From a virus (Duplodnaviria > Heunggongvirae > Uroviricota > Caudoviricetes): a stretch of DNA of 13,205 nucleotides. The notes under the pieces are model-generated. The model ran no database searches, was not told the origin of the DNA, and saw nothing but the letters and a program-made list of their open reading frames with translations. The position numbers were made by a program, and so were the translations under genes. Shown one piece after another: positions 89 to 13,205 of this stretch; the first letter of the stretch is position 1; each line of letters opens with the position of its first letter. The stretch lies in IMG/VR virus record IMGVR_UViG_2671180849_000011; one strand, 5' to 3'.

Positions 89-118
89 TTGACTTACCTT
101 CCGGCAACCTGCTAACAT
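89..118 (+). promoter_or_regulatory. candidate sigma70 promoter (TTGACT - 18 bp - TAACAT)
   Basis: -35 TTGACT at 89-94, 18-bp spacer, -10 TAACAT at 113-118; a 10-bp inverted repeat CCTGCTAACA (108-117) / TGTTAGCAGG (142-151) overlaps the -10 and could be an operator. Confidence 0.4.
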
Positions 119-124
119 TAGTCT

Positions 125-215
125 CGCGAGAGGTTGATTTTTGTTAGCAGGTTTTGCCCCGCATCAAAAGGATACCGGAGAAGAGCCCCTTTGTTAACAC
201 TTAGGGGCTTTTTTC
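125..215 (+). ncRNA. candidate small RNA of about 90 nt (promoter-to-terminator unit with no ORF)
   Basis: Predicted start about 125 after the -10; no ATG/GTG-initiated ORF before the terminator; 5' end GCGAGAGGTTGATTT (126-140) is antisense to leader elements at 8510-8527 and 9052-9069 of - strand mRNAs. Confidence 0.3.
184..215 (+). terminator. rho-independent terminator
   Basis: Stem AGCCCCT (184-190) / AGGGGCT (203-209), 12-nt loop, then T-run 209-214; sits just beyond the stop (266-268) of the convergent 708-aa gene. Confidence 0.6.
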
Positions 216-265
216 TTGCCTGGAGTTTATCCGGTCAGGCTAACTTATTGATTTAGATCACAATA

Positions 266-5786: not shown

Positions 5787-5808
5787 TATTGACAACCAAT
5801 TGTCAATA
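5787..5808. promoter_or_regulatory. palindromic operator overlapping candidate leftward promoter
   Basis: Perfect inverted repeat TTGACAA (5789-5795) - CCAA - TTGTCAA (5800-5806), arms extend to 9 bp; on the - strand TTGACA, 17-bp spacer, TAAGAT; a third half-site TTGTCAAT at 5929-5936. Confidence 0.4.
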
Positions 5809-6424
5809 GGAATCATTATCATTTAGGCGAGCTATAGGTACAAACAAGTCCACAGCAAAGGGGTAAGCATTATTAATGGCCCCTACCGTGTCAAAACCAA
5901 AGTCACTTATAGCATTTATGCAATAAGATTGTCAATGGCCCACAAGGGAGGGAGAGCACTTTTTGCCTTAAGCGCTCTAAAATCGATTCTAACGCGATTT
6001 AGAGGTCAGGTAATGCAATTGCACTACTCACACAAGTTAATGCAGCCAGAAGGCCATTTAGGGGCCTTATTTTCGATTTCTGAGCGTCCTGTTACGTGTG
6101 TGCATACACGGGCGCGCGGAATCCCTCGCTTAAACGGTCCGGATTGGAAACAGAAGTCTCTTATCCGGACTCCACATTATATAGCTACGTGCTATCGCAC
6201 TACGCTACCCACACACAGGCCGACGTAGTCGGTTTAGCTGTATAGCTAAAGTCACAGAGTGACCCACACACAGATTGCCTAAAGAGTCGCTAATGCTCTT
6301 TAGGCTTTCATTTGTGGGTTAAGCTTTTCCCTTAGAAAACCTTCCCCACTCTCTGATCCCTCCCCATTCCCCTTGGGGGGTTAGGGGGGGATCTGTTGTG
6401 TGATCTATTAATTTATCTATTAGA

Positions 6425-6645
6425 GTGAGAAATTTTCAGGGGTACTAGTGAGAAATCTTCGGTAGTAGTGGTGAGAAATTCTCAGGGGTGTGGGTAGGTA
6501 TGGTGGTTAAGTAGTGAGAAATCTTCAGTAGTTAGAGGCTGTGTATCATGGGGGCAATGACTGCAAAACGGGAAAGCATGACTGTATAAACACACAGGTG
6601 TGAAAATTCTTCACAGGTTAGCGACACCGGAAAAATCTTCAGTAG
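6425..6645. repeat. iteron-like direct repeats, six copies of about 18 bp (consensus GTGAGAAATCTTCAG(G/T)(G/A)G)
   Basis: Copies at 6425-6442, 6448-6465, 6471-6488 (exact 23-bp phasing), 6514-6531, 6598-6617 (degenerate), 6630-6645; preceded by G-run GGGGGGTTAGGGGGGG 6375-6390. Confidence 0.6.
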
Positions 6646-6655
6646 TGTCTATCTG

Positions 6656-6753
6656 CATATGTGGGAAATACACCCTTATTGACCTATTTTGACTAGCAAA
6701 CCTCTCTCTTCTCTCTTTGCTCTGATTTCCTCTCATGTGTGGGAAATATGCAT
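6656..6753. repeat. second repeat family CAT(A/G)TGTGGGAAATA (two copies) flanking a CT-rich tract
   Basis: catatgtgggaaata at 6656-6670 and catgtgtgggaaata at 6734-6748; pyrimidine-rich tract 6701-6734; a related copy aaaatgtgggatata near 7047-7061. Confidence 0.45.
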
Positions 6754-7488
6754 ACCAACACCCGTTGATTTTATCAATAGCTATGTTGACCGGGCATCAT
6801 AAGTGTGGCCCCTGAGGCAGTCCATCCTTCCCTCACACAGGACAATGAATATATAAAGAACATGAAAGACTGTTCACACCAACACGCCGATAAATTGCCT
6901 GAAGAGGCTTACATGGGGTTATTGTTGTGTGGGTAATGGTGATCATGCTAACAGATTATGTTAATCAGATGTAAATTCCGATTTTGTGGTCTGCATGGAG
7001 CAAACTATACTGGTTAAATGATCAGGGGAATGACTACAAAACAATCAAAAATGTGGGATATAGCCATCTACACGTCTAATGTGCTGTGTGGGGTGTTAGT
7101 GCATGCTTACATGTAAGTCATTGATTTGAAGGGTTGGGAAAATTGCATTTAACATAATAGATCTTATCTACACTAATAAAGCGAACTACAAAATCTGATT
7201 TAAAAATCATGATCAGTGGGCACAGAATTTACGTACAGCCACCTGAATAAATAATGTGCACAACATACAGCAAAGCTTAAGAATTAACATAATAGCAACG
7301 TGGTCAGTAGTGGTGTGATATTTGAGAATTGTTAGAAGAAAAAAGGGAGGTGGGGGAGCGCCTGCCTGGCACCTCAGACGAGTTACCCATAAGCTCAAAT
7401 ACCGCTAATGGATATTTCTGACACCCACACCCAAGACCGCTTTCAGCACATAGCCATATAGCCACACAGGACCGCACAGGATGCAATT

Positions 7489-7698
7489 GTGATAACAAAA
7501 AATGGGGGTGTAATAGGGTAGGTCACCTTTCATCAAAATCACTTCTACGACGTTTCCAGAGTGATAACAAGAAAACAGGCCTCTAAGATTATCTGTGCCT
7601 CGTTTTTAGCTTTTTGTGTGGTTACCAGGTGAAGAGGAAATGTTAAAAACTGTTCATTTTATGCACAAACTAGTCAGGGTGATACCACAAAATGAGGT
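7489..7698. repeat. third repeat family GTGATA(A/C)CA-A-rich-GG, three copies
   Basis: gtgataacaaaaaatggggg 7489-7508, gtgataacaagaaaacagg 7561-7579, gtgataccacaaaatgagg 7679-7697; DnaA-box-like TTATGCACA at 7659-7667. Confidence 0.45.
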
Positions 7699-7887
7699 GT
7701 AAGAAATCCAGCTGCAGATAATCTTGCAGCCAGATTTTGCAGTTTTTTAGGGTATGTTAAATTTGACAAAAATAGAGAAAAGGCTTATTAAGCTAACTTA
7801 TTGATTTTATTAGTATTACGAAAAAGGGTTACACCCTCTCTCTTACTCTGTCAACCGGGCGGTTGTGGCATAAAACGGATTAAATCA

Positions 7888-7946
7888 ATAAATAGGCATT
7901 AAATAGGGGATAAATAGGGGTTAATTGAGGGATAAATAAAAAGGGG
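7888..7946. repeat. five tandem 11-bp phased repeats (A/T)TAAAT(A/T)GGGG
   Basis: Units start at 7888, 7899, 7910, 7921, 7932 (exact 11-bp period); last unit merges into the terminator stem. Confidence 0.55.
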
Positions 7947-7959
7947 CCGTGATGGCCCC
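7931..7959 (-). terminator. rho-independent terminator of the membrane-protein gene
   Basis: Stem GGGGCC (7943-7948) / GGCCCC (7954-7959), loop GTGAT; - strand tail TTTTTATTTATC (complement of 7931-7942); 8 nt past stop codon 7968-7970. Confidence 0.6.
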
Positions 7960-7967
7960 CTGGTAGG

Positions 7968-8498
7968 TCAGAACAGTTTTTTGCTTTTTCTCCAACTAAC
8001 GCCGCGTTTGCCTATGCTCAGCCAGCCGCCAGCGAATCGGGTACCTGCGGTAACACTAGCTCCCCTGGTACCTACATGTGCATAAATACCTGCTCCACTG
8101 CTACCACCGCTTCTACGGCTTTTTCCGCCATCGATATCAAGGAGAACACAGATCGCATTCCACCAAAAGCCGATCACCCATATTGCAAATGCTAAGCCTA
8201 AAACGCCCCAGGTGACCGCCCACCCTTCCAGACTAGTGGGGAAGTAGAAAGCATTGAGAACAGCATTTATAGGGCGGATCAGGAGAAAATCTATAAAACC
8301 AGTATCCACATGAAACGGTCCATTGCCGAACTTGCTACTGCCAATAAATAAGGTAGCAGGGTAAAAGAAGATAGCCATTGCCCAAGGGCCAATAAGCAGG
8401 ATAGTAGCCCCGAACTGTGCGGCCTCCTTAAAGAACATTTTTACTATTGCTTTAAAAAGCTTTTTGTTTTCTGATTCTTTATCTTTCTGAAATAACAT
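7968..8498 (-). CDS. polytopic membrane protein (176 aa) with Gly/Ser/Arg-rich C-terminal tail
   Basis: ATG 8498 preceded by AAGGGG; about four hydrophobic segments; own terminator; position and type fit a superinfection-exclusion or abortive-infection moron (inference). Confidence 0.6.
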   Translation of the reverse strand: MLFQKDKESENKKLFKAIVKMFFKEAAQFGATILLIGPWAMAIFFYPATLFIGSSKFGNGPFHVDTGFIDFLLIRPINAVLNAFYFPTSLEGWAVTWGVLGLAFAIWVIGFWWNAICVLLDIDGGKSRRSGGSSGAGIYAHVGTRGASVTAGTRFAGGWLSIGKRGVSWRKSKKLF

Positions 8499-8509
8499 GA
8501 CGGTACCCC

Positions 8510-8527
8510 TTTGCGAGAAGTTGAATT
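8510..8527 (-). promoter_or_regulatory. conserved leader element copy 1, 12 nt upstream of ATG 8498
   Basis: + strand TTTGCGAGAAGTTGA (8510-8524) identical to 9052-9066 at the same distance from a start codon; 13/15 match to 126-140. Confidence 0.5.
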
Positions 8528-8555
8528 TAGTTAATAACCTGTTGGACTGTTCCTA

Positions 8556-8816
8556 CTATTTATTCTTCTTAAATCTCCCATCCTCCTTTCTCTCGATATT
8601 GTGGTAGTCGGCATAGGCTTTCAGCCTTCTGTGCACGGTGGCGATCCCCACACCGAAGGTTTTAGCGATAACCTGTCGTGGTGTTCCCTCTTCAACCATC
8701 TTGTACATCTGTTCCGCTACATCCATTTGTGCGGCTATCTCCATTTGCTTTGCCTTAGCTTTAATTTCAGCTATCAGCTCTTCCCTCAGTCTCCTGATAT
8801 CTTTAGCCCCCGTCAT
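8556..8816 (-). CDS. small HTH DNA-binding regulator (86 aa)
   Basis: SD GAGGAG 3 nt before ATG 8816; N-terminal predicted coiled coil; C-terminal HTH TPRQVIAKTFGVGIATVHRRLK of the resolvase/Mor-like type (by eye). Confidence 0.6.
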   Translation of the reverse strand: MTGAKDIRRLREELIAEIKAKAKQMEIAAQMDVAEQMYKMVEEGTPRQVIAKTFGVGIATVHRRLKAYADYHNIERKEDGRFKKNK

Positions 8817-8839
8817 AAACTCCTCTCAATGCTGTTCAT
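8813..8839 (-). CDS. 8-codon upstream micro-ORF (MNSIERSL) overlapping the HTH gene start
   Basis: ATG 8839 preceded by GCGGAG; stop TGA 8813-8815 overlaps ATG 8816 (ATGA); lies in an 18-bp direct repeat that duplicates the SD-start region. Confidence 0.2.
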   Translation of the reverse strand: MNSIERSL

Positions 8840-8916
8840 AAACTCCGCTCAATCATGATTAGTAGAACATCCAGGATAGCCAGACCTATTAAAAATGCTT
8901 TGCCTCCTTTGCCCAT
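8836..8916 (-). CDS. 26-aa hydrophobic micro-ORF (MGKGGKAFLIGLAILDVLLIMIERSL)
   Basis: ATG 8916 preceded by GGAGG at 6-nt spacing, 1 nt after stop of the upstream micro-ORF; stop TGA 8836-8838 overlaps ATG of the 8-codon uORF (ATGA). Confidence 0.25.
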   Translation of the reverse strand: MGKGGKAFLIGLAILDVLLIMIERSL

Positions 8917-8917
8917 C

Positions 8918-9040
8918 TCACACCTCCACACACAGAGCTAACATCAGGGCTAACACTCCAACCACCTCAATTGCCTTAACAATGTGTGGGTGATGAAACC
9001 TGGCCTTTTGCCATGCGCTGGCACTGTTCTTGATACCCAT
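8918..9040 (-). CDS. 40-aa micro-ORF with C-terminal hydrophobic helix (track ORF extends to 9145)
   Basis: Internal ATG 9040 preceded by SD AAGGTGA at 5-nt spacing and by leader element copy 2; ATG 9145 has no SD and the N-terminal extension is low-complexity. Confidence 0.3.
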   Translation of the reverse strand: MGIKNSASAWQKARFHHPHIVKAIEVVGVLALMLALCVEV

Positions 9041-9051
9041 AACTATCACCT

Positions 9052-9069
9052 TTTGCGAGAAGTTGATTT
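9052..9069 (-). promoter_or_regulatory. conserved leader element copy 2, 12 nt upstream of ATG 9040
   Basis: + strand TTTGCGAGAAGTTGA (9052-9066) identical to 8510-8524; GCGAGAAGTTGATTT (9055-9069) is 14/15 identical to 126-140. Confidence 0.5.
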
Positions 9070-9336
9070 GTTTGTTCGGTTGGGGTGCTATCAATGATCC
9101 CCTTCCTTGATTCGAACTATAGCCGGGTAAATCACTGGAAAACATTGATATTGATCAAAAGATATCTATCACGAATGAAAAAGTTATGATAGATGATAGG
9201 AGTCGCATAGCTGCGACCTTGGCTGTGTGCCAAGCCTGCAAAGCAGGTCAGGGATGAGGTGACGTATTGATGGGATTGATAGAGGTCTGAAAATACCGTT
9301 ACCACGCTAATTATTAGAATTTATATAATCAGGATG

Positions 9337-9365
9337 TTGACAATGTGAGTAAATACTGATATAAT
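9337..9365 (+). promoter_or_regulatory. perfect-consensus sigma70 promoter (TTGACA - 17 bp - TATAAT) with AT-rich upstream region
   Basis: TTGACA 9337-9342, exactly 17-bp spacer, TATAAT 9360-9365; AT-rich 9305-9335 (UP-element-like); faces the capsid genes. Confidence 0.65.
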
Positions 9366-10181: not shown

Positions 10182-10192
10182 GGAGGTTGAAA

Positions 10193-12458: not shown

Positions 12459-12913
12459 GTCCGAAAGTCCGTTGCACCATAGACAAGCGCATGATGGATA
12501 AGCTGCATAAAGAGCTCTCACAGATGGAAGGTGTAGCGGTTGGCTGGGATGACGGGAAACACTATAGCGGCCTGAATTACGCCACACTGGCAGCAATTCA
12601 TTCTGAGGGGTGGGGTGATCTGCCTAAGCGCTCCTTTATGGAATCTGCCCACGCAGCAATGCTCTATGAGAGCCTGAGACACACAAAAGCCCTGATTAAT
12701 GCAATCGTAAAGGGTGGGAGCTCTGAGGCCGTCAGGAAGCGAATAGGCAAGCGATACGCCGACATTCTGGAGACTATCCTGATTAGTGGGCAATTCAGCA
12801 ACAACAAGGTTTCCCCACAATGGGCAAGCTATAAAGGCTTCAATGATGCCATGCGCCACTATGATGATTTGATCGGTGCAATCAAATACTGGTCAAATGT
12901 GGGGAGAGGTTGA
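12455..12913 (+). CDS. hypothetical protein (152 aa), translationally coupled
   Basis: ATG 12455 overlaps upstream stop (ATGA); GGAG 8 nt upstream; no recognisable motif. Confidence 0.55.
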   Translation: MSPKVRCTIDKRMMDKLHKELSQMEGVAVGWDDGKHYSGLNYATLAAIHSEGWGDLPKRSFMESAHAAMLYESLRHTKALINAIVKGGSSEAVRKRIGKRYADILETILISGQFSNNKVSPQWASYKGFNDAMRHYDDLIGAIKYWSNVGRG

Positions 12914-12929
12914 AAAGAGGTAATAGTGT

Positions 12930-13005
12930 TCTTTTGAGGCCGTAGTGAGGCTAATCACGGTCCGGCTTAAAAAAGACAATAGGATGTCTTTTGAGGCCGT
13001 AGTGA
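12930..13005. repeat. two copies of a 19-bp direct repeat TCTTTTGAGGCCGTAGTGA
   Basis: Exact copies at 12930-12948 and 12987-13005 (57-bp spacing), similarity extends upstream (AATAG..); 17 nt after stop of the 152-aa gene. Confidence 0.5.
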
Positions 13006-13205
13006 TACACCACAAATCAGCCCCTTTCCACTTCTTTTCTCGCGATTGGTCCCTTGTGAGAATCCTTTATCAGGTATGCATTGTCCCGTGCATGAGCGGT
13101 CGATAGAGCCAGCCTCTTTCCCGGACTGGTTAGGATTTAGTGCGCTGAGAGAGCGCCGCTATCACTGTTAGCCTGTTTATCGTTGCCTGGTTTGTGCATC
13201 ACTGC

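Follow-up and report, generated by a model that had tools for sequence, protein, structure and literature searches.

We analyzed a stretch of viral DNA of 13,205 nt (IMG/VR record IMGVR_UViG_2671180849_000011; "the window" below means this whole stretch), in which an identical 15-nt element stands just upstream of two start codons on the minus strand. Our analysis points to a trans-acting small RNA (sRNA), encoded elsewhere in the window, whose 5' seed would pair with the mRNA beside both ribosome-binding sites; judging from the sequence comparisons, we consider it probable that this pairing is real and regulatory. The observations that carry this reading are the following. The sRNA locus and the two leaders contain complementary 12-mers that are conserved among relatives of the window; the 12-mers in the leaders are placed next to the Shine-Dalgarno (SD) sequences; the 12-mer in the sRNA locus lies between promoter-like and terminator-like signals; and this arrangement persists in a second, divergent allele of the locus.

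Conserved putative target sites and the predicted small RNA locus

An exact search of the window found TTTGCGAGAAGTTGA on the plus strand only twice, at 8510–8524 and 9052–9066, and thereby confirmed the repeat reported in the initial annotation of this DNA. Read on the minus strand, both copies are TCAACTTCTCGCAAA, followed by 11 nt that include an SD and then by an ATG (at 8498 and 9040, respectively). The copy before the ATG at 9040, which we call site 1, has the context ...acaaaTCAACTTCTCGCAAAaggtgatagttATGggt and the SD AGGTGA; the copy before the ATG at 8498, site 2, has the context ...taaatTCAACTTCTCGCAAAggggtaccgtcATGtta and the SD GGGG. The only other near-copy of the 15-mer in the window is CTCGCGAGAGGTTGA, at 123–137 on the plus strand, with three mismatches.

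The initial annotation held that a 15-mer was very unlikely to recur at the same register by chance in a sequence of this size. The register part of that argument stood: when the 40-nt regions upstream of 18 plausible gene starts were compared in the same register, the site 1/site 2 pair shared a run of 15 nt vs. 7 nt for the runner-up pair. The window contains three further exact repeats of 15–19 nt (D4, D10, and D14), however, so the exactness of the 15-mer is weaker evidence than it was first taken to be. We also looked in the window and in its relatives for a longer duplicated segment, with no conservation of position elsewhere, to which the element might belong, and found none. An extended 32-nt alignment of the two copies was 78% identical, and its additional matches were the SD and the ATG.

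The window is an essentially complete circular plasmid of ~13.2 kb from Escherichia coli. We gathered 41 loci of its family and extracted site 1 and site 2 from each. In these loci the conserved unit was a 12-nt core, TCAACTTCTCGC, which comprises the first 12 bases of the 15-mer on the minus strand. The sites in the window are:

9055–9066, minus strand: target site 1, core UCAACUUCUCGC, 14 nt upstream of the AUG of orf40 and abutting the 5' side of the SD AGGUGA
8513–8524, minus strand: target site 2, core UCAACUUCUCGC, 14 nt upstream of the AUG of a 176-amino acid membrane-protein gene (the cargo gene) and abutting the 5' side of the SD GGGG

At site 1, all 12 core positions were invariant among 12 distinct haplotypes, with most of the 24 upstream columns and several of the downstream columns variable. 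At site 2, where there were 19 haplotypes, 10 of the 12 core positions were invariant and nearly all of the flanking columns were variable. The sole core variant at site 2 was aCAACCUCUCGC, found in lineage L129/L115, in which a U-to-C change converts the G·U pair with the seed into G-C. The trailing AAA of the 15-mer is dispensable, being absent from site 2 of L134, which reads ttaatTCAACTTCTCGCAggagtatttaccATG; the functional unit is thus better taken as 12 nt than as the 15 nt originally proposed. Site 2 was kept before cargo genes of at least four unrelated families, and was present in every case. The proposed fixed register of −12 did not hold across the family either, because the distance from core to ATG ranged from 13 to 17 nt. 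What the alignment did bear out is the retention of the core beside the SD at both sites, even with SD variants such as AGGTTA, GGATGA, and AGGAG in the relatives. As far as these comparisons go, the conserved feature is the position next to the SD, rather than a fixed register.

The sequence complementary to the core is on the opposite strand, ~4.3 kb away from the target sites, in a locus with the following features:

89–118, plus strand: promoter-like site, TTGACT, 18 nt, and TAACAT, with a TG extended −10; identical in 32 long-allele loci
124–216, plus strand: predicted small RNA of ~90 nt, with a single-stranded 5' seed, a U-rich stretch, an internal hairpin, and an intrinsic terminator
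126–137, plus strand: seed GCGAGAGGUUGA (GCGAGAGGTTGA as DNA), reverse complement of the 12-nt core, with 11 Watson-Crick pairs and one G·U
177–216, plus strand: intrinsic terminator, a GC-rich stem AGCCCCU/AGGGGCU followed by UUUUUUCU; the U-run is on the plus strand only

The seed starts ~7 nt after the promoter-like site, and its first G is 37 nt from TTGACT. From these signals we infer that the RNA is produced, with a 5' end at ~124–126. Folded from position 124, the ~93-nt RNA had a predicted energy of −32.9 kcal/mol (z = −3.6) and an unpaired seed. No conserved open reading frame (ORF) was found in the region; the ORFs it contains are short, cross the terminator, and differ between alleles. 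The region was 93.5% identical to that of the diverged lineage L129, the genes of which are 66–85% identical at the DNA level to those of the window.

In L117 and, independently, in L134/L135, the whole segment of ~580 nt between the neck gene and the tape-measure gene has been exchanged for ~700 nt of unrelated DNA. When searched with the replacement segment of L117, E. coli genomes and plasmids gave no relevant match. At the same place and on the same strand, this short allele has TTGACT, 17 nt, CACACT, tgccag, GCGAGAAGTTGA, and then at once a terminator hairpin. In L117 the first seed G stands 36 nt from TTGACT, vs. 37 nt in the window, and the intervening sequence differs. The terminators stand in the same place but differ in sequence from that of the long allele and also between L117 and L134. 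The seed of the short allele, GCGAGAAGUUGA, has 12 Watson-Crick pairs with the core. Retained across two very different alleles are therefore the −35 sequence, the spacing, the 12-nt seed, and the plus-strand terminator, which are the parts that a 5'-seed sRNA would need; we regard this second allele as the strongest evidence for the sRNA reading. The chance of a 12-nt antisense match in a replacement segment of ~700 nt is about 0.0025, obtained by scaling by length the 4.6% rate for the whole window given below.

Pairing energies were examined by an RNAduplex scan of the entire plasmid with the 5'-terminal 27 nt of the sRNA. Apart from the antisense of its own locus, the best two partners on the minus strand were the two sites, at −26.2 and −24.9 kcal/mol. 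With the long allele the pairing can reach into the non-identical upstream flanks of the sites, but with the short allele it cannot, and so the 12-nt core is the common denominator. At position 7 the seed has G in long alleles and A in short ones, with a target U opposite both. The target C of site 2 in L129/L115 occurs only together with seed G, and the A/C combination was not seen in any of the 41 loci. On this sequence record, all of the observed variation in seed and core is compatible with pairing. A seed substitution, GCGATAGGTTGA, was seen in L121, a remnant from which the target operon is missing, although only in this one case. Together with the complementarity of core and seed and with the parts kept by the second allele, these data lend good comparative support to the suggestion, made in the initial annotation alongside the alternative of a leader-binding protein, that the two genes are co-regulated at translation initiation by a candidate sRNA at 125–215.

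Some further observations concern the sRNA locus and its surroundings. Relative to L129, the plasmid is most conserved in the intergenic stretch from the neck gene to the sRNA (12914–13205 plus 1–123), with 93–95% identity; the portion just upstream of the sRNA (12964–13205) is 95% identical. This stretch may be a cos/pac site or encode another RNA, and TTCTCGCGA within it, at 13037–13045, could pair with the sRNA seed. In the long allele, a 10-bp inverted repeat, CCTGCTAACA...TGTTAGCAGG, at 100–164 on the plus strand, surrounds the −10 sequence and the seed; it is absent from the short alleles. The loop of the corresponding hairpin would hold the seed or the core in transcripts entering from upstream or in minus-strand read-through from the tape-measure gene. 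The ~700-nt replacement segment of L117 and L134 contains an ORF of 49 amino acids. The L121 remnant is a partial plasmid copy in a 353-kb contig (GCA_033543915.1, locus at ~8500–17200), beside an insertion sequence element and a beta-lactamase gene. Extra seed-like copies of GAGGTTGA at the ribosome-binding site of the capsid gene (10183–10190) and at 12906–12913 were considered and judged to be incidental; they are SD-like, and the copy at 12906 is not conserved in L129 or L117.

Proposed regulation by pairing and other explanations

In the mechanism that we propose, the sRNA would be made from its own sigma-70-type promoter and stopped by its intrinsic terminator (~124–216, plus strand). 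Its single-stranded first ~12 nt would pair with the core at two cistrons of one minus-strand operon, orf40 and the cargo gene, to form a duplex spanning about −26 to −15 relative to the AUG. Such a duplex would most likely impede binding of the 30S subunit; recruitment of Hfq or RNase E is possible. Both membrane-protein genes would then be kept low together after transcription, and the helix-turn-helix (HTH) gene between them, which lacks the site, would be spared. Pairing in vivo, any dependence on Hfq, and the sign of the regulation we infer from the arrangement of these elements. Given that pairing is real, we lean toward repression and regard activation as a clearly weaker prospect. Repression is favored because the leaders were no more structured than shuffled sequences (z = +0.5 to +1.2), because the weak hairpins joining core and SD are not kept where the SD varies, and because restraint of hydrophobic peptides and envelope proteins by a constitutive RNA is a familiar logic.

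Several results weigh against the sRNA reading or against repression as its outcome. A 12-nt antisense match to the core, with G·U allowed, was found in 4.6% of dinucleotide-shuffled 13.2-kb windows, so that the match alone is only marginal. The best windows on the plus strand, the strongest of which was the sRNA locus with itself, reached −22 to −24.7 kcal/mol and thus left a small margin to the sites. No true compensatory double change was present in the 41 loci, and the family is too narrow for that test: homologue searches with the capsid, neck, and HTH proteins returned only E. coli relatives of at least 81% identity (the capsid homologues among them), with no distant family for a co-variation test, and the observed conservation partly reflects relatedness. 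The −10 hexamers (TAACAT and CACACT) are weak, and the promoter, the 5' end, and the use of the terminator are predictions. The predicted duplex stops at −15, upstream of the SD, which makes occlusion of the ribosome plausible but not guaranteed. The copy in the seed can be read on the minus strand as a third motif copy in the same sense, as a protein-binding site might be. Finally, when the core was blocked, the predicted mean unpaired probability of the SD rose from 0.30–0.51 to 0.54–0.77, a result that fits activation equally well.

Activation would use the same sRNA and the same pairing. The seed, which contains the SD-like GAGAGG, would displace a pyrimidine-rich core (CUUCUC) folded onto the purine-rich SD and so open the ribosome-binding site; anti-antisense activation of this kind is known for GlmZ-glmS and DsrA-rpoS. 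At both sites, local hairpins that join core and SD are indeed predicted (UCGC/GUGA and ACUUCU/AGGGGU). These hairpins are very weak, however: the whole segments folded at −4.5 to −7.4 kcal/mol, no better than their shuffles. The SD variants of the relatives do not preserve the hairpin, and the UCAAC and CGC of the core, which are unnecessary for sequestering the SD, are nevertheless invariant. On balance, we consider activation through this pairing rather unlikely.

The 12-mer could instead be a binding site for a protein, either the 86-amino acid HTH_7 protein, at the DNA level, or an RNA-binding protein that recognizes minus-strand transcripts, in which case the copy at 126–137 would be no seed at all. 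All three copies do read TCAACYTCTCGC on the minus strand, where transcripts running on past the tape-measure gene would carry the third; the long allele contains a palindrome, CTCGCGAG; and the gene between the two sites codes for an HTH protein. Such a protein site leaves unexplained why sites 1 and 2 adjoin the SD in every lineage, and why the third copy lies 36–37 nt after TTGACT and before a plus-strand terminator in two alleles. Operators at ribosome-binding sites within an operon would also be unusual. We therefore judge a protein site to be very unlikely.

It is hardly credible that the repeat has no regulatory role, as a relic of a duplicated initiation cassette or a recombination junction for cargo swapping, with a chance match at 126–137: the cargo gene after site 2 is swapped between plasmids, other exact 15–19-nt repeats occur in the window, and the chance expectation for the antisense match is ~5%, but the conservation breaks off sharply at 12 nt, each site having variable flanks to either side, the seed was kept independently in the L117/L134 replacement segment, and site 1 is not at the cargo junction.

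The putative target operon and its plasmid

On the minus strand, the target operon has the order leader, site 1, orf40, a hydrophobic ORF of 26 amino acids, a mini-ORF of 8 codons, the HTH_7 gene, site 2, the cargo gene, and a terminator. Its main components are:

8918–9040, minus strand: orf40, encoding a 40-amino acid protein with a C-terminal hydrophobic helix; first cistron, following site 1, and called as a 40-amino acid gene in L131, L133, L135, and L145
8556–8816, minus strand: gene for the 86-amino acid HTH_7 protein, between the sites, with its own SD and without the core element
7968–8498, minus strand: gene for the 176-amino acid multi-pass membrane protein in the cargo slot, following site 2
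7961–7941, minus strand: operon terminator, after the cargo gene

A longer in-frame ORF of 75 amino acids, starting at 9145 and placing site 1 inside the coding region, was rejected because its frame is broken by a 1-nt indel in most relatives. Domain and family profile searches gave no family match for orf40 or for the 26-amino acid ORF after it. For the 176-amino acid protein, no Pfam match reached the curated cutoff, and neither PHROG nor PADLOC offered a family. Among the window, L003, L006, L124, and L129, the cargo slot holds at least four unrelated membrane or secreted proteins (173–176, 195, 228–236, and 186 amino acids); these likewise matched no Pfam, PHROG, or PADLOC family. At 8813–8853 on the minus strand, the SD and ATG of the HTH gene lie in a 23-nt tandem duplication, ATTGAG[C/A]GGAGTTTATGA, which is absent from L129, where the region upstream of the HTH gene differs. 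This duplication creates the 8-codon mini-ORF, the stop codon of which overlaps the HTH start codon and suggests translational coupling.

The window was 90–95% identical, over 82–92% of its length, to five E. coli plasmids of ~13 kb in PLSDB, and further copies of ~13 kb were found in complete RefSeq genomes; eight related plasmid or genome records were examined in full. Its genes include those for a Rep-like HTH_36 protein, a major capsid protein (the name is taken from database annotations), a Dit-like tail protein, a neck/tail-completion protein (phrog_222), and a tape-measure protein. No terminase, portal, or integrase was detected among the genes of the window, and the plasmid looks like a helper-dependent satellite kept as a plasmid. 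The family is common, with one 48-amino acid protein indexed in 1762 assembly-collection blocks, 1421 of which had contigs of 10–20 kb.

Outside E. coli assemblies and plasmids, the searches returned little. Capsid-based searches yielded three loci in metagenomes and no match in viral contigs or GTDB genomes. The whole window, the sRNA DNA, and the leader-cassette DNA had no match in the phage database, and a search of IMG/VR found nothing similar to the plasmid family. The exact 15-mer gave 106 single matches in IMG/VR, approximately the chance number for a 15-mer, none of them in a family member. Seed-containing 17- to 19-mers gave few matches in IMG/VR and GTDB genomes, none of which was window-like or had, by inspection, an sRNA-like promoter or terminator context. 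A literature search found no paper describing the plasmid family or its protein accessions.

Other elements of the plasmid were noted. An iteron of ~21 nt, TAGTGAGAAATCTTCAGTAGT, is present in three to four copies at 6423–6646, in a stretch of ~2 kb without an annotated gene (about 5800–7960), which probably marks the origin of replication. A perfect sigma-70 consensus promoter (TTGACA, 17 nt, and TATAAT, with a TG) at 9337–9365 on the plus strand is directed toward the capsid operon and overlaps a TTGTCA on the opposite strand in a divergent control region; a promoter of this strength presumably needs a repressor. A second exact repeat, GCTAACTTATTGATTT, occurs at 239–254 and 7792–7807 on the plus strand, each copy just past the end of a minus-strand operon (the tape-measure gene and the cargo-gene terminator, respectively). 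It is kept as GCTAAnnTATTGATTT in most family members and is absent from L129 and L134.

A broader proposal is that the sRNA and its two sites form an immunity or maintenance switch of an undescribed and very common family of E. coli phage-satellite plasmids that depend on a helper. During carriage the RNA would silence two products, an exchangeable cargo for surface exclusion and a small peptide that is a membrane toxin or serves in lysis, and it would be neutralised when convergent late transcription of the tape-measure operon runs on through its gene and yields a perfect antisense. We offer this as speculation and consider it quite unlikely. If true, release of the membrane proteins would be tied to late gene expression under the control of the helper, in an RNA-based satellite switch analogous to P4 immunity and unrelated to it.

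Comparison with known systems

By prediction, the sRNA locus has the organization of a trans-acting sRNA. It appears to be an independent transcription unit, with a promoter, no conserved ORF, and an intrinsic terminator with a U tail, and these signals are present in both alleles. It also has a conserved single-stranded seed complementary to conserved sites near ribosome-binding sites.

The nearest analogy to the system described here is the CI RNA of phage P4, a helper-dependent satellite phage-plasmid; this RNA is related to the c4 RNA of P1/P7 and to IsrK (Rfam C4 family). In P4, the CI RNA base-pairs with a sequence that is repeated within a single operon, as seqA and seqC, and holds that operon down. 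Processing of the same leader transcript releases the CI RNA, which is flanked by its targets and works by terminating transcription prematurely (PMC4825925). In both cases the one small RNA of a mobile element would use a single complementary segment against two repeated sites in one operon, and the resemblance is functional only. Unlike the CI RNA, the plasmid RNA has its own promoter-like site and terminator and is encoded far from its targets on the other strand; its seed is at the predicted 5' end, and its targets abut ribosome-binding sites. Neither the long nor the short allele matched Rfam C4 or IsrK, even at E ≤ 10. No Rfam family was matched at its gathering threshold; the best was a weak ctRNA-like match (ctRNA_p42d, 23.6 bits vs. 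a threshold of 50), which covered the terminator only.

The enterobacterial 5'-seed sRNAs, such as RybB, OmrA/B, and MicC, combine a conserved 5'-terminal seed with a terminator/Hfq module. The plasmid RNA resembles them in its predicted single-stranded 5' seed of ~12 nt, its U-rich stretch, its Rho-independent terminator, and the location of its sites near the translation-initiation regions of envelope-protein mRNAs. The short allele, which consists of seed and terminator only, corresponds to a minimal form of this design. Unlike these sRNAs, the plasmid RNA is plasmid-borne and confined to one plasmid family, the only targets identified are on the same plasmid, and there is no sequence or Rfam relationship to them.

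Type I toxin-antitoxin systems with a separately encoded antitoxin RNA (tisB/IstR-1, shoB/OhsC, and zorO/OrzO) offer a third comparison. Here too there are genes for hydrophobic peptides, orf40 and the 26-amino acid ORF that follows it, and an RNA with short complementarity to a 5' untranslated region. The plasmid system is unlike them in that the genes for the RNA and the peptide lie apart and the site also precedes a large exchangeable cargo gene. A weak match to OhsC (19.4 bits vs. a gathering score of 50) overlaps the terminator and stops short of the seed.

The plasmid family is apparently undescribed and unstudied, and the regulator is of an ordinary, known kind. Pairing of an sRNA beside a ribosome-binding site is a textbook mechanism; the value of the system lies in the element and in the logic of the circuit, and no new principle is involved. 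Should the pairing be real, this plasmid family, found in well over a thousand E. coli assemblies, would carry a compact circuit made up of one operon with two sites and a single 12-nt seed. The circuit would show how such an element restrains its membrane-protein and cargo genes, with a conserved leader that travels with whatever cargo fills the slot. The short allele, with a seed and a terminator in ~50 nt, would rank among the smallest natural sRNA designs.

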